NCBI GenBank assembly: GCA_036405135.1
Contig: DASWYF010000025.1
Coordinates: 17,665 to 81,664 of the forward strand
DNA from: Verrucomicrobiia bacterium
Lineage (GTDB): Bacteria > Verrucomicrobiota > Verrucomicrobiia > Limisphaerales > JAEYXS01
Length of the DNA stretch: 64,000 nt
Direction of reading: 5' to 3'
Every line of letters begins with the position of its first letter. Within the stretch, counting starts at the first letter, position 1. Of the stretch, positions 1-44,874 are shown piece by piece. The notes under the pieces are model-generated. The model worked only from the letters and a program-made list of their open reading frames with translations, ran no database searches and had not been told where the DNA came from. The translations under genes and the position numbers were made by a program.

Positions 1-1569
1 TGCTGCCACCGTGCTCGAGACCGTCGCCGACGGCTTGCTGTCCACCGCCGCCACCAACGTCCCCGTAGAGACCATCGGGGCCTTGAAGAGCGCCAGCTCT
101 TCCTTCGTGTAAGGAACCTTCGTCGCCTTCAACACTTCGAGTTGCGCCTTCAAGTTCGCCAGCTCATCCGCCGCCTTGTCCGTGTCACGGCGATTCGAAC
201 GGCTGCTTGCCTCCTTCAATTTCTTCTCCAGGCTGTCGCGTTCTTTTTCCAGATCGCGCACCTTGTTCTCCAGCTTCGCCACTTCCTTCGTGTTCGCGAC
301 CGGTGCCGCCGTCGCAGACGCTCCCATCTTCGGATCCGTCAGGAGCGCTTCCAGCTTCGCATTCTCCTTGCGCAGCTTCTCCGCATCACGCATCTCGCTT
401 TGCGCCGCCGACCGCGCCCTGCTCGCTTCCGTCTGCGCCTGCTCCACCGCCTTCTGCTGCTCTGCCAAACGCTTCTGCGTCTCCGAAAGCTCCTTCTTCA
501 AGCCCTCATCCGCATTGGACATCTTCGCCATGTTCGCCGCGCGCTTCTGTTCATCCTTGAGCTGCGCAGCCAGAGTTTCGGTCTGCGCCTTCAACTGTGT
601 CGCCTCCAATGCCAGCGCCCGGTTCTCCGTCTCCAGCTTCGCCACATCACCCATCTTCTTATTGGCGGACTTCAAGGATTCCGCTTCGGCCTTCGCTGTC
701 GCGAGCTGACTTTCCAAAGCCTTGTTCGACGATTCTAATTTCGCCGCATTCCCCGCCAGCTTGTTCGCATCGGAAAGCTGCTTCTTCAACGTCGAAACTT
801 CTTCCTTCAACTGCGGCAGCTCCTTGCTCTCGCGCATCGAGCCGATTTTCTTCTCCAGGCTCGCGTTCTCATCCGTCAGCTTCGCCATCGCCCTCTTCTG
901 GCTGGCCAATTCCTTGTTGGCGTCGGCCAATTGTGATTTCGTTTCTGAAATCTCCTTCGCATCCACCATCTTGGCAGATTTCACCTGCTCTTGCTGCAAG
1001 CTCGCCTTCAACACATCGCGCTCCTTCTGCACTTCCAGCAATGTTCCTTCCACCTTGGCCAGTTCCTTCGGGTCCAATGCGGCGGGTTTCGCCGCCAGCG
1101 CATCCTTGAGCTGCTTCTGCAGCATGATCTTCTCCGTCTGCAGACTGATCAACTGATCGTGCAAGCGAGTGATCTCGGAGTCCGAGAAACTCGGCTGCGG
1201 CACTGGCGCTGGCACATTCTCCTTGGCCGGCCCGCTCTTCATCGCTGGCGTAGAGACAGCCGGTTTAGGCGTCGGCTTCACGTTCGGATACTTCGCCGCC
1301 AACGGCGCGATCTTCTGGTTCACATACTCCAGCCGGTATTGGATCACCGTGGCGTTGTAGTTCGGATATGCGGAACGCAGCTTCTGCAACCCCTCCTGCA
1401 CATCGCGATACCGGATCAACGCCGCCGACTCCTCACCCTTCACCAACAACGCTTCGGCGTCCTGCAACATGCCGTAATAAGTCGCGTAAAGCTCATCTTG
1501 CGGATCGGCTTGTACCACGAGGGCAATAGCCAATAAAGCAGCGCCAACTGTCGGGAGAAGTCGTTTCAT
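1..1569 (-). CDS. Exported coiled-coil protein, C-terminal part cut off by the window edge
   Basis: It is not in the ORF track because there is no stop codon in the window. The reverse complement from ATG 1567-1569 reads MKRLLPTVGAALLAIALVVQADPQDELYATYYGML... and stays open for all 523 codons down to position 1. The N-terminus looks like a signal peptide, followed by a long K/E/A/L/Q-rich heptad-like sequence (...KELASQKRAMAKLTDENASLEKKIGSMRESKELPQLKEEVSTLKKQL...). The + strand ORFs listed for 142-1536 are low-complexity mirror frames of this gene. Confidence 0.7.
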   Translation of the reverse strand, partial: MKRLLPTVGAALLAIALVVQADPQDELYATYYGMLQDAEALLVKGEESAALIRYRDVQEGLQKLRSAYPNYNATVIQYRLEYVNQKIAPLAAKYPNVKPTPKPAVSTPAMKSGPAKENVPAPVPQPSFSDSEITRLHDQLISLQTEKIMLQKQLKDALAAKPAALDPKELAKVEGTLLEVQKERDVLKASLQQEQVKSAKMVDAKEISETKSQLADANKELASQKRAMAKLTDENASLEKKIGSMRESKELPQLKEEVSTLKKQLSDANKLAGNAAKLESSNKALESQLATAKAEAESLKSANKKMGDVAKLETENRALALEATQLKAQTETLAAQLKDEQKRAANMAKMSNADEGLKKELSETQKRLAEQQKAVEQAQTEASRARSAAQSEMRDAEKLRKENAKLEALLTDPKMGASATAAPVANTKEVAKLENKVRDLEKERDSLEKKLKEASSRSNRRDTDKAADELANLKAQLEVLKATKVPYTKEELALFKAPMVSTGTLVAAVDSKPSATVSSTVAA

Positions 1570-1744
1570 GGGCCGCATGGATATAGGGAAACGCCCCGTT
1601 TGGCAATCCGTTTGCCGCAAGAAAACGCGTTCCTTGCCACCATCCAAATTTTGCTCCATTCCCATCTCCTCACGCCCTCCTTCCAGCGTCATCACTGTCC
1701 CTTGCTCCGGATGCATAACTCATCCTTCATGGTCCCTAATCTAA

Positions 1745-1844
1745 AACAGTCAGTAGGACATTGGCTGTCCATGTCCCTTTTTTTGAAAAACATTTCAAAG
1801 CAGCATAACCCGCTGCTAATCAGAACTTTAAAGCCAAAACATCC
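1745..1844 (-). repeat. Copy C of a conserved ~100-140-nt upstream module (core palindrome GGACATTGGCTGTCC at 1756-1770), with no small ORF attached
   Basis: In gene orientation it reads GGATGTTTTGGCTTTAAAG...ATGTTTTTCAAAAAAAGGGACATGGACAGCCAATGTCCTAC, which aligns with 30149-30285 (-) and 41811-41952 (+). It lies about 175 nt upstream of the start of the coiled-coil gene. The ATG inside the palindrome is followed by a stop after 3 codons here. Confidence 0.75.
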
Positions 1845-1870
1845 ACCTGATATCGATTTGAGGTCAAAAA

Positions 1871-1930
1871 TTTCGCCTTTCTACTCCCCTTTCGCATATT
1901 TCGCGTCTTTCGCGGTTAACCCTCCCCTGA
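1871..1930 (+). repeat. Stutter-type intergenic element, TTTCGC family
   Basis: The sequence is TTTCGCCTTTCTACTCCCCTTTCGCATATTTCGCGTCTTTCGCGGTTAACCCTCCCC. A short word is repeated with variation and ends in GGTTAA plus a C-tract. A second copy lies at 2569-2605. Confidence 0.7.
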
Positions 1931-26770: not shown

Positions 26771-29764
26771 TCAGTTCCCTTTCAGAAAACCGATCAAGTC
26801 CGCCAGCTCCTGCTTCGTCATCGTCTTCTCCAGTTCCTGCGGCATGAGCGACAGGCTCGTGGATGCCATCTTCGCGATATTCGCCCTCAAAATCGTGTCC
26901 TCCTGGCCCAAGGCCCGCTTCAACGTCACGCTCGATGCCGTCTCCGATGCCAGCAATCCCGTGAGGCTTTCGCCATCTTTCGTCTCCACTTCGTAACTGA
27001 TGTAGCCCGGATAAATCTCGAACTCGGGCACCAAGATGTGCAGGAGCAGCACTTCCGCCGTCTGGTTCTTCACACCCGTAAGATCCGGCCCCACATTCGC
27101 GCCATCGCTACCGAGCTTGTGACACGACGCACACGCTTTCTTGAACATCTCATGGCCGTTCTTAGCGTCCGACTTCAGCGCCAAGACCGATTTGTATTCC
27201 TCATACACCTTCATGCGATCTCCGCCGCCTCCGCCTTGGAACAGCACTTCCGCGCGCGTGCGGATCTTCTCATCCTTATGCTTCGTCAATTGCGTCCGTC
27301 GTGCAGGGGTCAGCGACCATACCTGCACATGTCCCGCCTCGACCGCATCCAGCAACGCCGGCAGGAAACGCACCTGTGACATCGCCGTGCTGATCACGGC
27401 CTCACGCACCGGCGGCGAATACGCGCGCCAACGTTCACGGCCCAGCAACGTCTCGCCCACCTTCACCTCGTTCATCACACCCAGCGAACGGATCGCCGCG
27501 ATCTGCAATTCTTTCGCCTGCTTCGGATCAACCAGGCTCAGCAAAATATCTCCCGCCTGTGCGTAATCCGCCTGTGCCAGCAATCCGATGGCCGCGAGGC
27601 GCCGGGCATCACCTGCTTCCACATTCTGCACCGCCTTCAAGGCGCGTTCGAAAAGTGCCTTCACCACGCCAGTGGCTTCAGCGGAATACGCCGTTTCCAT
27701 CGCCACCAAATTCAACACGGGCGAACTTTCCTTCCCCTTTACCTTGCCGCGCAAGCCCTCCGCCACGCCGCTCAGAAATGCCAGCGGCCAGTCCGGCTCC
27801 GTCTCTGCGTTCACCAGCGTCAGCAGGTAGATCATTTTCTCCGGCGGCTGGCTCGCTGCCAGTATCTGCCCCATCGACTGCATGAGCACGGGATTCACCG
27901 GCGTACCGCGATTCCCCTCCTCCACCAGGCCTTTGAACAATTCATCCGCCTGAGCACCGATGGATGTCAGCACAGCGGCACGTGTCCACTTGTCCTCGCC
28001 GTCACGCAACGCGATGCGCAACAGAGGTGCGATGCTCCGCGAATCCTTTCCTTCCCCGAGAGCCAGCGCACATTGGAACCGCACCCGCGCATCCCGGTCC
28101 TCCGCCGAGCGGCTGATCACCTCCACCAGGAATTGCGAATCCGTATAACTGCGTTCCGCGATGGCCAAACCCATCTCCCGGATGTCCGCCGAGGAATTCG
28201 CCAGCAGCCCGCGCATGAAATTTTCATCCCGCGGCCGCGTGGCAAAAGAAGCCGAAACCGCCGCCGCCGCGCCGTAATCATTTCCCCGTGCGCGTGACAA
28301 CCGCTGCATCTCCGTGCGGTTCATCCCGTCCGGGTTCTCGATCAGGCGCCGCCGCGCCACTTCTCGCACCCAGCCGTTCGTGGCCATCAGCTTGCGCATG
28401 GCCTCATCGGCACTCAACTTTGCCAGGTTTGGCAGCCGTTTCTCCGCCAATTCCTTTGCCGGGATCTCCGCGCCCACCACGCGATAGATACGGCCCATGT
28501 CTTTGCCGCTCTCGAAATCTGCCGTCTTGCGGATGTTCTCCGGCAGATACTGCGGGTGATCCACCACCCGGCGATACATGTCGCAGATATACAGCGCGCC
28601 CTCCGGCCCCGTCGTCGCATACACCGGGCGGAACCAGCTATCCGCCGTCGCCAGAAAATCGCTCTTCTCATCCGCCGGTTCCGAACGGAACGAAGCCCCG
28701 TTGAGCAGGAGCACCTGCCGCTGCACCAGGTTCTGCGCCGGCTCACACACGAAGACATCACCCACATGTTTCGGTGTCAGCGCACTGCCGTAAAATATAT
28801 GACTGCCGCACGCCGAGGTGAATGACCCCGCATGCGGCGCGCTCATCAAGCTGGGCATGAATGACGCCGTCGTGCCATCCGCGCTCAACGGATGTACCTT
28901 GCCCGCATCACCCGAAGGCGCGACATCCTGCACCATCTCGGAAAAAGCATAATGCGGATTCCGCTTCAGATGCCGCGGCTCCAGCACGATGTGTTGCAAC
29001 GGATTGCGATTCGAGGTGGTGAACCTCCGTCCAAACGCATCGAACGTCATCCCGTATTGGCCCGTGCCGCCGAGCACTTCGAATTCAAACGTGCGCGGAT
29101 TGAAGCGCGAATCATTCTTCGTGAACTTCACCGCCGCCATCTTCCGATTCTTCGGCGACGTGATCTCTCCCCCCGTCAACCCGCTCGTCAGATAGATCCA
29201 GCCATCCGGCCCAAGCGTCGGATGACTCACGCGCAACTGCGTCGTCTGGTTCGTGCCGAACCCCGTCAACCACACCTCCCGCACATCCGCTTTGCCATCG
29301 CCATTCGTGTCTTTGAAGTAAAGCACATCCGGCGCGCACGTCACGATCCAGCCACCCATCCACCGCTGCAAACCGTTCGGATACGTCAGCCCATCCGCGA
29401 ACACCGTGCGCTTCTCGTAGTAACCATCGCCATCCACATCCTCCAGTTGCGCCAAGACACCCACCGGCGGCTTCCCCTCGCCCGGTCCCGTGGGATACCC
29501 GCGATTCTCCGCCACCAGCATCTTCCCCGATTCATCCCACGCCACCGCCACCGGACTCGCGATCTGCGGTTCCGCCGCCGCCAGTTCCAGCCGAAGCCCG
29601 TCCTCCAGCTTGAACCGCTTCACCGCCTCCTTCGCTGGCACCGCGACATCTGCCGCACACAGGGACACCACACCCGCCAGCCACAACATCGCCATGGCCC
29701 CGGTCAACCCGCTCCGTGTCCAACCTGTGAAATTCATGCGCATAATATCAACCTGTGCTGCCAC
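26771..29764 (-). CDS. PVC-type heme-binding CxxCH protein (membrane-bound-dehydrogenase-like N-domain, HEAT repeats, C-terminal cytochrome c domain)
   Basis: The N-terminus reads FKLEDGLRLELAAAEPQIASPVAVAWDESGKMLVAENRGYP. The C-terminus reads GHEMFKKACASCHKLGSDGANVGPDLTGV...SLMPQELEKTMTKQELADLIGFLKGN. The exact start is uncertain: ATGs at 29764, 29743 and 29737 are all possible. Confidence 0.85.
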   Translation of the reverse strand: MAAQVDIMRMNFTGWTRSGLTGAMAMLWLAGVVSLCAADVAVPAKEAVKRFKLEDGLRLELAAAEPQIASPVAVAWDESGKMLVAENRGYPTGPGEGKPPVGVLAQLEDVDGDGYYEKRTVFADGLTYPNGLQRWMGGWIVTCAPDVLYFKDTNGDGKADVREVWLTGFGTNQTTQLRVSHPTLGPDGWIYLTSGLTGGEITSPKNRKMAAVKFTKNDSRFNPRTFEFEVLGGTGQYGMTFDAFGRRFTTSNRNPLQHIVLEPRHLKRNPHYAFSEMVQDVAPSGDAGKVHPLSADGTTASFMPSLMSAPHAGSFTSACGSHIFYGSALTPKHVGDVFVCEPAQNLVQRQVLLLNGASFRSEPADEKSDFLATADSWFRPVYATTGPEGALYICDMYRRVVDHPQYLPENIRKTADFESGKDMGRIYRVVGAEIPAKELAEKRLPNLAKLSADEAMRKLMATNGWVREVARRRLIENPDGMNRTEMQRLSRARGNDYGAAAAVSASFATRPRDENFMRGLLANSSADIREMGLAIAERSYTDSQFLVEVISRSAEDRDARVRFQCALALGEGKDSRSIAPLLRIALRDGEDKWTRAAVLTSIGAQADELFKGLVEEGNRGTPVNPVLMQSMGQILAASQPPEKMIYLLTLVNAETEPDWPLAFLSGVAEGLRGKVKGKESSPVLNLVAMETAYSAEATGVVKALFERALKAVQNVEAGDARRLAAIGLLAQADYAQAGDILLSLVDPKQAKELQIAAIRSLGVMNEVKVGETLLGRERWRAYSPPVREAVISTAMSQVRFLPALLDAVEAGHVQVWSLTPARRTQLTKHKDEKIRTRAEVLFQGGGGGDRMKVYEEYKSVLALKSDAKNGHEMFKKACASCHKLGSDGANVGPDLTGVKNQTAEVLLLHILVPEFEIYPGYISYEVETKDGESLTGLLASETASSVTLKRALGQEDTILRANIAKMASTSLSLMPQELEKTMTKQELADLIGFLKGN

Positions 29765-29879: not shown

Positions 29880-29996
29880 TTCCTCCAATGTTCCATGTTC
29901 CCTTCCCCATTGGCCCGCCGGTGCCACCGGCCCCCGCTCGATGTTCAGAGTTCGATGCATAGGCCAACCGGTGCAACCGGTGTTCGATGTTTCCCC
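29880..29996 (+). repeat. Cluster of stutter-type elements, including a single-unit version of the GTTCGAT array element
   Basis: The units are ATGTTCCATGTTCCCTTCCCC, CCGGTGCCACCGG, GATGTTCAGAGTTCGATG and CCAACCGGTGCAACCGGTGTTCGATGTTTCCCC. The last has the same flanks as the 3361-3560 array but only about 1 repeat unit. Confidence 0.75.
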
Positions 29997-30148
29997 TCCT
30001 CATTCTTCATTCCCGCGGGACAAGCTTGCTCGACGGCCCTCCGCATCTGCCCAAACCACCAACTGGCCTGGCTGATCTTCCGATACCGGCGACTCACCGG
30101 CCTGCACCACGTTTCCAACTTCAACTCACTCTGTTCCGTCAGCTTCAT
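29945..30148 (-). CDS. Small Arg/Trp-rich protein, paralog A (67 aa from the MKLTEQ start)
   Basis: The sequence is MKLTEQSELKLETWCRPVSRRYRKISQASWWFGQMRRAVEQACP... Its 44-codon core differs from paralog B (41953-42141) by 14 synonymous and 4 non-synonymous codon changes, by my hand alignment. Confidence 0.7.
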   Translation of the reverse strand: MKLTEQSELKLETWCRPVSRRYRKISQASWWFGQMRRAVEQACPAGMKNEEGKHRTPVAPVGLCIEL

Positions 30149-30285
30149 ACTGAACCTTTCTTTTACTTTTCTGCGATCAGTATGTAGAGGGGGGTAGGAC
30201 ATTGGCTGTCCATGCCTCCCCTTTTCTGAAAATATTTTACCCCCCTAACAAACTCGAAATAAACAAGTTAAAACGAAAACCAACA
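30149..30285 (-). repeat. Copy A of the conserved upstream module (core palindrome GGACATTGGCTGTCC at 30197-30211)
   Basis: In gene orientation it reads ...CGTTTTAACTTG...GTTTGTTAGGGGGTAAAATATTTTCAGAAAAGGGGAGGCATGGACAGCCAATGTCCTACCCCCCTCT..., which aligns with 41811-41952 and 1745-1844. Confidence 0.8.
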
Positions 30286-30409
30286 GCCGAGCCTTAATTT
30301 TCCCTACCTAAAAATAGCGACAATTCGCGGAATCCGCCTCCTCACTTGTTTGACCTGAAAATTGCCCCAAACCGCATATTTATGCCCGCATTGACAAACC
30401 CACCCCATT

Positions 30410-30585
30410 GTCCGAGCGTTCCCTTGTTCGCAGCCTAAGCTGCCTTGCCTTCCTGCAAGTCAGCACGGGGAACCCAAACTCCCGGGTCACACCGGGACGG
30501 GGCGCACGATGCCAGGCAACTGGCCTTCGGGGTCACTTCTGAGACCTAGCCCGTCAGCTAACCTCGTCGGCGTTTGGAAGGGCGG
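30410..30585 (+). promoter_or_regulatory. c-di-AMP riboswitch (ydaO-yuaA class)
   Basis: ACGGGGAACCCA (30465-30476), CGGGGTCA (30528-30535) and GCCCGTCAGCTAACCTCGTCGGCG (30549-30572) match the hallmark blocks of the ydaO riboswitch as I remember them from B. subtilis (GGGGGACCCA / GGGGUGAAUC / ACCCGUCAGCUAACCUCGUAAGCG). It sits 5' of a K+ transporter gene, which is the canonical regulon. The boundaries are approximate. Confidence 0.85.
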
Positions 30586-30700
30586 TCCTCTGCGCCGTGA
30601 AGTCCACGGCGTCCACGATCACCCCGTTTGAAAACTGATTGGCCTGTGCCGTTGGCGGAGCTTTTGAGCCTCGCTGGCGACGCCGTCCTTGAACATGGAC

Positions 30701-41244: not shown

Positions 41245-41730
41245 GTGGATATCCTGACCTGTGGGGACGCGCACCCTGCGCTCCATCACCTACGCTTGCA
41301 ATCGGAGGCGGTTTGGGGATTCGATGGCGGCGATTTGAAAGACCGGACACAAGAGACGTTGGCGAAGTTGCATCGCGAGTTGGAGCGGTGGTGCACGTTG
41401 TGGGGTTTGTACCGGTTATCTCGCGAGGCGAAGATCGCTTTTTCCACGCAACTCGGACTGGCGCTGGGAAAGTGTGATCCAAAGAGCGGGCAGATACTGC
41501 TGAACGGCGTTTTGCTATTGCCAGAGAATGAGAAGCTATTGTTCGAGACGTTGTGTCATGAAGCGGCACATATCACGGCGCACTTGCGTTATGGCCCCGC
41601 CATCGAGGAGCACGGCGTGGAATGGCAGGAGTATATGGAGAAGGCAGGGTTCGTGCCACGACCAGTGATCGAGGTGAAAGAGGTGTTCGGGTTGGCGGTG
41701 TCGGCGCGGACTGATCTGCCTCAAGGGTAG
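41245..41730 (+). CDS. SprT-like zinc metallopeptidase-domain protein
   Basis: It reads ...AKIAFSTQLGLALGKCDPKSGQILLNGVLL...LLFETLCHEAAHITAHLRYG...HGVEWQEYMEKAGF. The HExxH motif is present in an SprT-like context. The start is uncertain. Confidence 0.6.
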   Translation: MDILTCGDAHPALHHLRLQSEAVWGFDGGDLKDRTQETLAKLHRELERWCTLWGLYRLSREAKIAFSTQLGLALGKCDPKSGQILLNGVLLLPENEKLLFETLCHEAAHITAHLRYGPAIEEHGVEWQEYMEKAGFVPRPVIEVKEVFGLAVSARTDLPQG

Positions 41731-41732
41731 TT

Positions 41733-41800
41733 TCAAGTGTTCAGTTTTCAGGGGGAGAAGACACGAATTTCACGGATTGGCACAAATTAGGGAGGGGAAT
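41733..41800. repeat. Stutter-type elements (TTTCA(A/G)(G)T family and CCGTGAAATTCGTG unit)
   Basis: The sequence is GTTTCAAGTGTTCAGTTTTCAGGGGGAGAAGACACGAATTTCACGGATTGGCACAAATTAGGGAGGGG. A related unit, GTTTCAAGTTTTCAGTGTTCAGAGGG, lies at 42153-42178. Confidence 0.6.
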
Positions 41801-41810
41801 TTCCGGGTTT

Positions 41811-41952
41811 GGATGGGTTTTTAACGCTTAAAGCATTCATTTCCAGATTGTTAGGATGGTTTTAAATATTTTCAGAAAAAGGGAGGCATGGACAGCCAAT
41901 GTCCTACCCCCCTCTGCATAGTGGACGCAGAAAGATAACAAAAAGGTTCATT
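41811..41952 (+). repeat. Copy B of the conserved upstream module (core palindrome GGACAGCCAATGTCC at 41890-41904)
   Basis: GGATGGGTTTTTAACGCTTAAAGC...GATTGTTAGGATGGTTTTAAATATTTTCAGAAAAAGGGAGGCATGGACAGCCAATGTCCTACCCCCCTCT... aligns with copies A and C. Confidence 0.8.
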
Positions 41953-42141
41953 ATGAAACTGACAGAACAGAGCGAGTTGAAGATGGAAACGGGATGTCGT
42001 CCGGCGAGTCGGCGGTATCGGAAGATCAGCCAGGCGAACTGGTGGTTTGGACAGATGCGCCGGGCGGTGGAGCAGGCTTGTCCGACGGAGGAGCCGGTGA
42101 AGGTGGCGCGGCAGAGGGTGTTGCCATTGGCGACGGAATGA
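41953..42141 (+). CDS. Small Arg/Trp-rich protein, paralog B (62 aa from the MKLTEQ start)
   Basis: The sequence is MKLTEQSELKMETGCRPASRRYRKISQANWWFGQMRRAVEQACP... See paralog A for the synonymous-biased divergence. Confidence 0.7.
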   Translation: MKLTEQSELKMETGCRPASRRYRKISQANWWFGQMRRAVEQACPTEEPVKVARQRVLPLATE

Positions 42142-42510
42142 GGAAAGGAAGGAGTTTCAAGTTTTCAGTGTTCAGAGGGACACGGAAAAGTTAGAGCCTC
42201 CTTACGTCGGCTGCTACGAGTTGGGTTCGAGGACGATTTTTTTATTTTGCGGAATGCCAAGGAGGAATGGCCCGCCCTCCGGCCAGTCGGTCAACCAATG
42301 ACAGGAACCGTCACTGGCCGGAGCTGGTTGTACCAGCGGCCTAACTAGAGAAAAAGAAGAGAGGAAATAGGCCACTGCAAGCGAGTGATAAGCAGATTAC
42401 AAAGGGGAAGCAAAAAGGGGTTAACAAAAGGAAGGAGAATGGGGTAAATTCAGCTTTGCTTACGTAACAGAAAGTGTTGAATAAGCGTCTCTATACCCAG
42501 TCTGATAAAC

Positions 42511-44874
42511 GTGATGTCGTCTCTGACCAAAAAACTGCTGTTGTGCTGTGGTGTGACGGGGCTTTTGCTAGCTGTCACACCCGTGCAGGGTGCTGCCTCG
42601 CTGGACTTTAAGAAGGCCGCAGTGCCGTTCATGGAGAAGTATTGCTACGATTGCCACGGCGGTAAGAGCACGAAGGCGGATCTGGACCTGAAGGCGATCA
42701 AGGATGACAAGAAGATCCTGGAAGACCACAAACTTTGGCGCGGGGTGCTCCAGCAGGTGAATTCGGGCGAGATGCCGCCAAAAAAAGCCGCACATAAGCC
42801 GACGCCGGAAGAAATAGAGAAGTTCAACAATTCGCTCACGGAATCGTTTCACAAGGCGGAGTCCAAACTAAAGCCGGACCCCGGCCATGTGACGATGCGC
42901 CGTCTGAACCGTCTGGAATACAACAACACGGTGCGCGACCTGACAGCGGTGGATTATTTTCCGGCGGAGAATTTCCCGGCGGATGACATCGGCCACGGCT
43001 TTGACAACATCGGTGATGTGCTGACCATCTCACCAGTGCATCTGGAGCGGTATCTGGATGCGGCGGATGGCATCGCGCAGCGGGCGATCTTCCTGACCTT
43101 GCCAAAGCCGAACAGCCGCACGACTTCCTCCAACTTTCTCCGGCCCCGTTATGGCTCTGAAAATTCCACCCGACCGATGACGAACTCGGAGCCGGATGTG
43201 TATTACGACGAGCGCATCGACAAGGTGGGTGAATATATTTTCCGGGTCCGGGTCCGCGGCACCAATGCCCCCGGGACGGAACCGGCGCAGTTCGCCCTGC
43301 TGCTCGATGATAAAGAGCTGGGCAAATTCACCTGGGACGCCGAGGAAGCGAAGCAAGGCGAGGGGCAGCGTCGCAGTCGGAGTGGATGGAAGGAATTTGA
43401 AGTGCCGCTCAGCATGGTAAGCACGGGTGAACACCGCTTCAAACTGCGCTACCTGAACCAGCAACTCGGCGAGGTGACCAACCGCATGCTCTACGTGAAC
43501 GCTTTTCAAGTGATCGGCCCGGCGGATACCCGCACGGAGTTCATGAAGAAGGCGGATGCAGTGGCGGCGGGTAAGCCGCCGGAACAACGTGTCCATCCGT
43601 TGGTGGAGTGGTTCGTGACCCGGGCGTTCCGTCGTCCGGCAACGAAGGAAGAGGTTGCCCGCTATGTCCGTGTATTCGAAGCTGGCAAGGCCGCGAACAC
43701 GAACAGCTTTGAAGCGGGCTTCCAGCAAATGGTGAAGACGGTGCTGTGCTCGCCGAAGTTCCTTTTCCGCACGGAATTGGATGACCGCCCGAAGGTGAAG
43801 GATGCCCATGCTTTGGGTGAATACCAACTGGCCTCGCGCCTCAGCTACTTCCTCTGGTGCTCCATGCCGGATGAAGAATTGCTCGCGTTGGCCGGGAAGA
43901 ACCAGCTCACGGCCAATCTGGATGCCCAAGTGAAGCGCATGTTGAAAGACCCGCGCGCGGAATCGCTCGTGAAGAACTTCGGCCTGCAATGGCTGCAACT
44001 CCAACGTCTGATGGCCTTTACACCGGATGCCACGCTCTTCCAAGGCGTAGATGATCGCCTGAAGAGATCCATGCTGCGGGAGACGGAGATGTTCCTGGGC
44101 GAAATCATCCGTGAAGACCGCAGTGTGCTCGAACTGATCGATGCGGATTTCACTTATTTGAACCGGCCACTGGCACGTCATTACGGCATCGAGGACAAGG
44201 TCTTCCCGCGTGGACAACGCGACTGGCGCCGGGACAATGATTTCATTCGCGTGACGTTGCCAGATAACACTCGTGGCGGATTGCTGACGCAAGCGAGCAT
44301 CCTGACGGTGACTTCCAATCCCACGCGCACTTCCCCGGTGAAGCGTGGCAAATGGGTGCTGGAGCAGATCCTCGGCACACCTCCCCCACCCCCTCCGCCA
44401 GGCGTAAGTGAATTGGATGAACAACATGAACTCAAAGGTTCGCTCCGCCAACGCATGGAGCAGCATCGGGCAAATCCCGCCTGCGCGAACTGCCATCAGC
44501 AGATGGATGCGATGGGTTTTGCGTTTGAGAACTTCGATGCCGTCGGCCGTTTCCGTTCAAAGGATGGTAACGATGTCATCGATCCTTCCGGAGTGTTGCC
44601 CGATGGTCAGAGCTTTAAAGGCGCTGGGGAATTGAAAGGCATCCTCAAGGGCAAGAAGGACTTGCTAGCCCGGAATGTGACGGAAAAACTCATGATTTAT
44701 GCGCTGGGCCGGGGCCTGGAATACTATGACGAGCGGACCATTAAACAGGTGGTCGCGAACATGGCGCAGAACGATTACAAATTCTCCACGTTGGTGACGT
44801 CCATCGTGCAGAGCGATCCTTTCCGTCTTCGCCGCGGGAAAGAGTTGAAAGAGAAGAACGATTTGGGTGAATAA
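42511..44874 (+). CDS. DUF1592/DUF1587/DUF1588-type protein with an N-terminal planctomycete-type cytochrome c (PSCyt) motif
   Basis: It has a signal peptide followed by FMEKYCYDCHGGKSTKADLDLK. It also contains ...MRRLNRLEYNNTVRDL...FPADD..HGFDNIGDVLTISP..LERY..., a later PPPPPPPG stretch and ACANCHQQMD. This is the architecture usually paired with a DUF1552 gene. Confidence 0.85.
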   Translation: MMSSLTKKLLLCCGVTGLLLAVTPVQGAASLDFKKAAVPFMEKYCYDCHGGKSTKADLDLKAIKDDKKILEDHKLWRGVLQQVNSGEMPPKKAAHKPTPEEIEKFNNSLTESFHKAESKLKPDPGHVTMRRLNRLEYNNTVRDLTAVDYFPAENFPADDIGHGFDNIGDVLTISPVHLERYLDAADGIAQRAIFLTLPKPNSRTTSSNFLRPRYGSENSTRPMTNSEPDVYYDERIDKVGEYIFRVRVRGTNAPGTEPAQFALLLDDKELGKFTWDAEEAKQGEGQRRSRSGWKEFEVPLSMVSTGEHRFKLRYLNQQLGEVTNRMLYVNAFQVIGPADTRTEFMKKADAVAAGKPPEQRVHPLVEWFVTRAFRRPATKEEVARYVRVFEAGKAANTNSFEAGFQQMVKTVLCSPKFLFRTELDDRPKVKDAHALGEYQLASRLSYFLWCSMPDEELLALAGKNQLTANLDAQVKRMLKDPRAESLVKNFGLQWLQLQRLMAFTPDATLFQGVDDRLKRSMLRETEMFLGEIIREDRSVLELIDADFTYLNRPLARHYGIEDKVFPRGQRDWRRDNDFIRVTLPDNTRGGLLTQASILTVTSNPTRTSPVKRGKWVLEQILGTPPPPPPPGVSELDEQHELKGSLRQRMEQHRANPACANCHQQMDAMGFAFENFDAVGRFRSKDGNDVIDPSGVLPDGQSFKGAGELKGILKGKKDLLARNVTEKLMIYALGRGLEYYDERTIKQVVANMAQNDYKFSTLVTSIVQSDPFRLRRGKELKEKNDLGE

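Follow-up and report, generated by a model that had tools for sequence, protein, structure and literature searches.

We examined a 64,000-nucleotide stretch of DNA from a Verrucomicrobiia bacterium (the window; C25:17665-81664 of the 52-contig, 5.8-Mb assembly of genome G000), in which a conserved module built around the palindrome GGACA-N5-TGTCC lies upstream of large genes at three places. We propose that these modules are promoters of the housekeeping-sigma type that lack a -35 element, and that a dimeric regulator, most likely an activator, binds the dyad at predicted positions -41 to -23. Judging from the sequence, we give this reading a probability of roughly 60%. A preliminary description of the window had offered two interpretations of the module, a shared promoter/operator with a transcription-factor palindrome and a 5'-leader cassette. 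The former is supported by a fixed geometry relative to a -10-type hexamer, by orientation and by conservation in congeners. The latter is disfavoured, since transcription is predicted to begin downstream of the dyad.

The 15-mer palindrome GGACAGCCAATGTCC occurs three times in the window, against 0.15 occurrences expected, and none of 100 shuffles reached three. The three palindromes (copies A, B and C; Table 1) all fall within the intervals given in the preliminary description, and alignment confirms the shared flanks it reported: around the palindromes, about 100-150 nt are held in common, comprising the invariant run CATGGACAGCCAATGTCCTAC and upstream blocks. Between copies B and C the likeness extends over about 330 nt and takes in a small open reading frame (ORF) of 62-67 codons, while copy A has only about 100 nt in common with them and its likeness stops just past the palindrome. 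The large downstream genes lie 187, 433 and 607 nt from the modules (copies A, B and C, respectively), and all three encode N-terminal hydrophobic segments, judged by eye and without a signal-peptide predictor. The statement that a large exported-protein gene always lies downstream stands within the window and fails genome-wide, as the list of targets below makes plain. The palindrome is indeed conserved independently of coding, since its ATG is absent at 28 of the 30 G004 sites, where TA replaces AT; the accompanying remark that the frame opened by this ATG stops after three codons was mistaken, the frames measuring 16, 16 and 26 codons. Stutter repeats between module and gene are only weakly borne out. 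Tandem Repeats Finder returned nothing at 41600-42600 and a single two-copy 9-mer at 29965-29982; short heptad-like motifs are visible by eye.

The module is widespread in the genome from which the window comes. G000 contains 25 sites with the full architecture, 18 of which carry the exact 20-mer, and one further site that is degenerate. Using the oriented pattern, we counted 32 modules in G001 and 36 in G004. These two genomes, together with G003 and G006, are congeners of G000; the genus sample comprises eight genomes, and all genomes compared here are metagenome-assembled and represent uncultured Verrucomicrobia. The pattern GGACA-N5-TGTCCTA gave 11-70 matches per genome in all eight members of the genus, compared with 0-5 per genome in 53 genomes from other families of the order, and the reversed pattern, which served as a control, gave 0-1. 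Modules as such number 0-3 in the other families.

An alignment of 82 sites from three species, anchored on the palindrome, reveals a common anatomy. The conservation profile extends to about -105 from the dyad, and the roughly 100 nt upstream of the dyad carry A3/T3 tracts phased at 10 bp (z = 18 relative to shuffles). Two types can be told apart by the end of this upstream part, which is AAAATATTTTcAaGAAAA in type 1 (69 sites) and AAAAGTTATTCACAGTATTCAC in type 2 (13 sites). The upstream part is followed by the dyad, with the consensus (TA or AT)GGACAG-N4-TGTCCTA, arms of 5-7 bp and, at 18 of the 25 G000 sites, the spacer GCCAA, and then by a C-rich or GTGACC stretch. A hexamer of the form [T/C]AnnnT is located exactly 12 nt past TGTCC in 75 of the 82 modules and 11-13 nt past it in 81. 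Its A2 and T6, the most important positions of the housekeeping -10 element, are invariant in 82/82 modules; TAnnnT occurs at the hexamer offset in 1.4% of random positions. Downstream of the hexamer, a G-rich segment of 6-7 nt leads to A(T/G)GAA, and the word A(T/G)GA(A/T) is present 6-7 nt past the hexamer in 39 of the 82 modules. With the hexamer set at -12 to -7 and the start predicted, the dyad would cover 19 bp from -41 to -23, centred near -32, with its right half-site TGTCCTA at -29 to -23.

The modules have no -35 hexamer. At its place, the TTGACA score does not exceed 3/6 in any of the 82 modules and is 1/6 in 47 of them. In the same genome, 12 of 54 tRNA upstream regions have TTGACA at 5-6/6, positioned 16-18 nt before TAnnnT, a match of a kind found in 0.25% of random 90-mers. 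A sigma-70 consensus scan called no promoter at the modules. Nor is an extended -10 conserved, with T at -15 in 23/82 modules and G at -14 in 42/82.

The modules are also oriented with respect to genes. In G000, 21 of the 25 face a recognisable co-oriented gene, two face short unannotated ORFs and two face convergent 3' ends; under random orientation, the one-sided binomial probability of 21/25 is about 5e-4 (our own calculation). Orientation relative to genes had been named beforehand as a test on which the promoter/operator proposal could fall, and it proved non-random. The targets include genes of central metabolism (pgk, zwf, serA and pyrophosphate (PPi)-dependent phosphoenolpyruvate carboxykinase (PEPCK), the last matching the solved structure 6k31), stress and repair genes (clpB and a Y-family polymerase/DnaE2 fusion), and genes for other cytoplasmic or membrane proteins (corA, ubiX and an IclR regulator), for other enzymes (an M16 peptidase, a glucuronyl esterase and an FAD oxidoreductase) and for envelope or PVC-type proteins (DUF1501, several PSCyt/PSD proteins and two DUF7133/cytochrome c proteins). 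Behind five of the 25 modules, a gene for a micro-protein comes first. At the polymerase gene, the ATG stands 9 nt past the hexamer in both G000 and G004, so that any leader there would be a few nucleotides long at most.

To a large extent the modules keep their places between species. For 22 of the 25, a similar downstream gene in G001 and/or G004 also has a module ahead of it, loci being matched by tblastx likeness of the downstream sequence, not by full synteny, with paralogues possible among the PSCyt/DUF1501 families; the modules are therefore positionally stable and not scattered. Both core variants and whole promoter-plus-leader cassettes are exchanged between loci. At the matched loci, the core is AT + GCCAA in G000 (17/22 loci), AT + GCGG(A/T) or AT + GCCAA in G001, and TA + GCGG(A/T) in G004. 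The recurrence of the same multi-base change at at least 14 loci points to either ectopic conversion, in a copy-and-paste manner, or co-evolution with a reader protein. Because G001 holds both variants together, we consider exchange between loci more likely than a strict change in specificity. As for the cassettes, the zwf promoter-plus-leader of G000, some 220 nt with a hydrophobic ORF of 37 codons, shows 77-82% identity with that of PEPCK and no relation to the zwf promoter region of G001. Similarly, the G000 clpB module is 81% identical to the G004 corA module, and the likeness between the clpB modules of G000 and G004 is limited to 45 nt around the dyad.

This design is likely an order-wide ancestral promoter of the micro-protein gene that was amplified in this genus. 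A profile of the micro-protein (core WWFxQMR) finds the family in 131 of 151 genomes of the order, with one copy in nearly all genomes and 3-5 in this genus. Outside the genus, 24 loci from further genera and families were inspected, and in at least 20 of them the micro-protein gene is preceded by TGTC-N(11-14)-[T/C]AnnnT, most with a GGAC left arm, and the order-wide pattern ahead of it can be written GGAC(A/G/C)G-N4-TGTCC-nACCCC-N(6-7)-[T/C]AnnnT. The coupling between palindrome and micro-protein, first noticed in two cases in the window, thus runs deeper than claimed and is order-wide among the genomes examined. At the order-wide sites TGTC never changes, whereas the left arm is less strictly kept; conservation across the order is highest in the right half and the C-run that follows it. 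One symmetric AGACA/TGTCT change is seen, and flank positions co-vary symmetrically. The covariation score of the dyad is 0.136, compared with 0.083 for shuffled alignments, of which 6 in 500 score as high. A few sites in other families stand ahead of other genes. At two such loci (L125 in G012 and L129 in G026), the same dyad plus hexamer stands ahead of genes that do not encode the micro-protein; as read by eye in both cases, the N-terminus of one of these targets resembles a Cas3 HD domain, and the other target is unannotated. The regulon in other families is small yet wider than the micro-protein alone.

The mechanism we favour would operate as follows. A complete module of about 150 nt would be read by RNA polymerase carrying a housekeeping-type sigma factor. 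The 19-bp dyad (TA/AT)GGACA-N5-TGTCCTA would take the place of the -35 element, with its promoter-proximal half centred near -26, and the phased A/T tracts, together with a UP-like stretch, would bend the DNA and could offer the alpha subunits of the polymerase a docking site. A dimeric regulator on the dyad would replace the contact between sigma region 4 and the -35 element, most likely as an activator. Transcription would begin at a purine about 6-7 nt past the hexamer, giving very short or A/G-rich leaders. In this genus the promoter of the micro-protein gene, the likely founder, has been copied before 25 to about 36 unrelated genes or operons. The sequences directly show the anatomy with its fixed spacing and lack of a -35 element, the orientation, the conservation of position, the tie to the micro-protein gene throughout the order and the exchange of cassettes; it is from sequence that we infer the start sites, the binding of a protein at the dyad and activation.

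Several observations weigh against this proposal. The near-identity of the 25 sites and their fixed asymmetric spacer are atypical of a factor's regulon, and this uniformity could reflect copying more than selection for binding. No common function unites the target genes, and two of the modules are directed at convergent genes, for a DeoC aldolase and a DEAD-box helicase. The dyad can also form a hairpin of -5.5 to -8.4 kcal/mol alone, and of -16 to -18 kcal/mol with its G-rich and C-rich flanks (copies B and C). Finally, a sigma-70-like TTAACA-18-TAAATT at 42421-42450 lies just ahead of the gene starting at 42511; given this candidate promoter, the gene may be transcribed from its own start and not necessarily by read-through from the copy C module. 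The two convergent-facing modules (G000 C2:108611 and C2:248526; L089 and L090) have counterparts in congeners and may drive small or antisense transcripts.

The same promoter could instead act as a repressor operator, with the UP-like stretch and the -10 element supporting constitutive transcription and a dyad-bound repressor blocking polymerase across -41 to -23. Dyads over the -35 region are classic repressor sites, the strong phased upstream A/T tracts could make up for the missing -35 element, and one module is located at a polymerase gene of a usually repressed kind, next to lexA. We nevertheless consider this arrangement unlikely. With neither a -35 element nor a conserved extended -10, basal activity is doubtful, and the housekeeping genes pgk, zwf and serA would have to be placed under one common repressor.

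It is also conceivable, and quite improbable in our estimate, that the micro-protein itself acts in trans on the dyad, or that it links polymerase to a dyad-bound factor, so that the ancestral unit would be a self-regulating gene. The idea draws on the basic single-helix form of the micro-protein, its conservation as a single-copy gene in the order and the place of that gene behind this promoter. The structural model of the micro-protein, a single basic helix at residues 20-42 of moderate confidence, with a mean predicted local distance difference test (pLDDT) score of 66.5, provides no fold to search with and neither favours nor rules out its reading the element. Comparison of the micro-protein with Pfam, NCBIfam and solved structures gave no meaningful match. 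Among the neighbours of its gene across 28 loci, no DNA-binding gene is linked to it; the only recurrent neighbour is a convergent gene, an alpha/beta-hydrolase by eye, at seven loci. If the micro-protein were the partner, genes of central metabolism, envelope and stress would belong to one micro-protein-dependent circuit, and the micro-protein gene (3-5 copies) and its promoter (25-36 counted) would both have been amplified in this genus, with ectopic exchange keeping the copies alike.

A dedicated alternative sigma factor, or a sigma-like adaptor, might read the dyad or its right half TGTCC(TA)C-CCCC directly, with no separate factor involved. The stereotyped promoter with its fixed 12-nt spacing would suit such a reader, as would the order-wide conservation of the right half and the C-run. 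We regard it as very unlikely, given that the A2/T6 signature of the hexamer is that of a housekeeping-type sigma and not of an extracytoplasmic function (ECF) sigma, that a region 4 contact would need more than the 12 nt separating TGTCC from the hexamer, and that dyad symmetry is unexpected for a sigma factor.

Slightly less probable still is that the palindrome functions as an RNA hairpin within a leader transcribed from further upstream, as a nut/boxB-like element or an attenuator, perhaps bound by the arginine-rich micro-protein. The hairpin is stable (z-scores of -2.3 to -4.5), and its 5-bp stem with a 5-nt loop beginning with G resembles that of boxB sites; the compensatory AGACA/TGTCT case, the covariation score above shuffles and the modelled single basic helix of the micro-protein fit the same picture. 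Against it stands the invariant -10-type hexamer downstream of the hairpin, and no upstream TAnnnT is common to both module types, type 2 having none. The inner pair of the stem is broken in 7 of 21 families, and the left arm varies in an uncompensated way: its inner position is A, G or C while the partner T is fixed, and at the degenerate site C25:105191 the left arm is broken (ATACA) and the right arm unchanged. The extended stem is missing from copy A and from type-2 modules, the loops ending in T (GCGGT, GTTTT) are unlike a GNRA-like pentaloop, and Rfam gives no match at the modules, its matches in the window being a tRNA and a cyclic di-AMP (c-di-AMP) riboswitch only.

Least probable of all is a selfish or structural dispersed repeat, such as a miniature inverted-repeat transposable element (MITE)-like element or a recombination site, whose promoter features would be relics of the founder without a regulatory role: the near-identity of the copies, their species-specific core variants and their exchange between loci would fit, but modules stand ahead of similar downstream genes in congeners at 22/25 sites, their orientation is strongly biased towards genes (21/25 co-oriented), the conserved positions are the promoter-critical A2 and T6 where a relic would decay evenly, neither terminal inverted repeats nor target duplications were seen by eye in the upstream alignments, and the element is held at one gene's promoter across the whole order.

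We also considered known regulatory classes as readers of the element and rejected four. Judged by eye, a sigma-54 promoter (TGGCAC-N5-TTGC) does not fit, as the -12 GC is missing and the congeners have AGGACA and not TGG. A MerR-type mechanism is not compatible with the absence of a -35 element and with a dyad centred near -32, which is not between two hexamers. TGGACA, taken as a -35 element, is 22 bp from the hexamer. For LexA, there is no LexA_DNA_bind match in G001, G003 and G006 despite their many sites, and no dyad lies upstream of lexA in G000. The Verrucomicrobia LexA box, TGTTC-N4-GAACA, is not enriched in G000 (6 exact matches, about 5.5 expected). Because of this, a perfect 22-bp palindrome over the lexA start codon, ATACCGTGCA-TC-TGCACGGTAT (G000 C37:194082-194103), which has no close second copy in the genome, may be the LexA operator of this lineage.

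With the modules read as factor-dependent promoters that lack a -35 element, their closest documented geometry is that of the PafBC-dependent 'sigma adaptation' promoters of mycobacteria (RecA-NDp); we draw this as an analogy and do not claim membership of that class. The PafBC motif tGTCgg(N10)tA(N3)T has no -35 element and places its own element at -23 to -28 (PMC8635444). Recognition of this non-palindromic site is by a heterodimer of PafB and PafC, whose binding requires polymerase (PMC10853764). The two designs share a canonical -10, the absence of a -35 and a GTC element centred near -26 (by predicted numbering in the modules). From TGTC to the hexamer there are 16 nt in PafBC promoters and 17 nt here, with 16 in five modules. 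A translesion/DnaE2 polymerase gene is among the module targets, and G000 encodes three WYL proteins, of which two were compared with solved structures and gave PafBC as best match. Unlike the PafBC site, that of the modules has dyad symmetry, its second half-site lying at -41 to -35, and most module targets are metabolic or envelope genes, those of damage or stress type being the IMS-DnaE2 polymerase and clpB. None of the three WYL genes showed a link to the motif. Of 31 relatives, 28 carry WYL genes. Two micro-protein-bearing genomes have no WYL match, but these are only about 90% complete. The WYL distribution is too broad to be informative on the identity of the reader.

A homodimeric WYL activator, DriD of Caulobacter, offers a second comparison: its sites are ATACGAC-N7-GTCGTAT, and didA, a small protein gene, is reported to be a key target (PMC10853764). 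The likeness lies in a dyad of about 20 bp with GAC/GTC, in activation by a dimer and in a small-protein gene as target, didA for DriD and the micro-protein gene for the modules. The half-site sequences differ, the spacer is 7 nt and A/T-rich compared with 5 nt here, and DriD has a site at its own promoter, whereas the dyad is found at none of the promoters of the three G000 WYL genes. In PhoB-dependent (pho-box) and lambda cII promoters, too, the activator site replaces or straddles a missing -35 element and stops some 10 bp short of the -10, and the pho box contains TGTCA. The pho-box and cII sites are built of direct repeats and bound by proteins in tandem or as tetramers, whereas the module site is an inverted repeat. 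A search for literature on Verrucomicrobia promoters or start sites found no paper, and the half-site words matched unrelated papers only.

Reuse of promoters has precedents as well. Putative mobile promoters have been described as highly similar promoter segments ahead of non-homologous genes in one genome (PMC3575422). In G000, the 25 modules likewise stand ahead of genes from unrelated Pfam families, and cassette swaps are seen. The modules differ from mobile promoters in forming a large family with a defined anatomy, a traceable order-wide founder and ongoing exchange. They combine two known kinds of promoter, factor-dependent -35-less promoters and reused promoters, with an unusually clear history.

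Table 1. Features of the three modules in the window and of two related leader loci elsewhere in G000 (window positions unless a contig is given; predicted promoter positions are relative to the predicted start)
Feature	Position	Strand	Basis
Copy C, upstream part with A/T tracts phased at about 10 bp; UP-like AAATATTTTCAGAAAAA at 41864-41880	41785-41889	+	Conservation across the 82 aligned modules
Copy C, dyad GGACA-GCCAA-TGTCC, with TACCCCCCTC next to it downstream (41905-41914); predicted at -39 to -25	41890-41904	+	
Copy C, -10-type hexamer CATAGT, 12 nt past TGTCC; predicted start A at 41929	41917-41922	+	Fixed offset
First gene behind copy C, encoding the micro-protein (62 aa, core WWFGQMR)	41953-42141	+	
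PSD/PSCyt gene (DUF1592, DUF1588, DUF1587, DUF1585, DUF1595, PSCyt1); next co-oriented gene behind copy C	42511-44874	+	Pfam
Copy B, upstream A/T-phased part	30212-30316	-	
Copy B, dyad GGACAGCCAATGTCC	30197-30211	-	
Copy B, -10-type hexamer CATACT; predicted start A at 30172	30179-30184	-	
Micro-protein gene, 67 aa, behind copy B	29945-30148	-	
DUF7133/HEAT/cytochrome c gene; next co-oriented gene behind copy B	26771-29764	-	Pfam
Copy A, upstream A/T-phased part	1771-1875	-	
Copy A, dyad GGACAGCCAATGTCC; right flank TACTGACTG instead of the C-run	1756-1770	-	
Copy A, -10-type hexamer TAGATT; predicted start near A at 1730, at the beginning of ATGAAGGATGAG	1738-1743	-	
Large ORF behind copy A, opening at 1716; hydrophobic N-terminal segment from 1569; no micro-protein between	1-1716	-	
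zwf and PPi-PEPCK leader loci (L107, L108)	G000 C47:74263 and C47:175596		

The surroundings of the window copies (Table 1) show some further features. The ORF behind copy A (1716/1569) has no informative Pfam match. The cytochrome c gene behind copy B is preceded by a weak terminator-like site (29797-29784). Back-to-back with copy B, and facing the opposite way, is the c-di-AMP riboswitch at 30422-30587 (+) (Rfam RF00379, 43.3 bits compared with a gathering threshold of 38). Copy C and its micro-protein gene are flanked by near-identical, heptad-like direct repeats, GTTTCAAGTGTTCAGTTTTCAGGGGG (41731-41756) and GTTTCAAGTTTTCAGTGTTCAGAGGG (42153-42178) (+). CAAAGTT/GAACATC heptads like those flanking copy C come after many modules in congeners.

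Other observations concern modules elsewhere in G000. The degenerate site C25:105191 (+), the sole such copy found, is of type 2; its left arm is broken (ATACA-ACCAA-TGTCC), and it keeps an intact right arm, hexamer and leader. In the leaders of type-2 modules, for example those at C10:66514, C28:114022, C37:87013, C48:275525 and C49:83253, TATGAATTATGAAGGATGA(A/G)(T/G)TATGAA is conserved as DNA. Because the mini-frames in it (MKDEL and MKDEV, each followed by a stop) end at variable places, this initial transcribed sequence looks like a conserved leader or ribosome-binding region and not a peptide. A 37-codon hydrophobic ORF (MKNKNSMLLTGGEQEPVWVTVMGCGAGFVFLMILLAI and a paralogue) begins 6 nt past the hexamer in the zwf and PPi-PEPCK leaders, and a family search with it gave no match. 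At C37:188934-194948 (L106), a single 1425-codon ORF encodes a fusion of two polymerases, one of the Y family (IMS, IMS_C) and the other a Pol III alpha subunit of the DnaE2 type (PHP, DNA_pol3_alpha, finger, HHH_6). lexA is located directly upstream, with only the module between, and the same order and polymerase N-terminus are found in G004.

To our knowledge, almost nothing is known of transcription control in Verrucomicrobia. The modules contribute a precisely defined promoter class with its cis-element, which the order as a whole keeps at a single very small gene and which one genus has amplified. If the activator model is true, replacement of the -35 element by a factor acting near -26 would extend beyond Actinobacteria and would reach genes such as pgk, zwf, serA and PPi-PEPCK. 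The modules also represent a natural case of promoter copying and exchange in which the founder can be named, intermediates are found in sister species and cassettes have been swapped between genes. In practical terms, the module is a candidate strong or regulated expression element for these organisms, and it offers a way of approaching what the unannotated micro-protein does.

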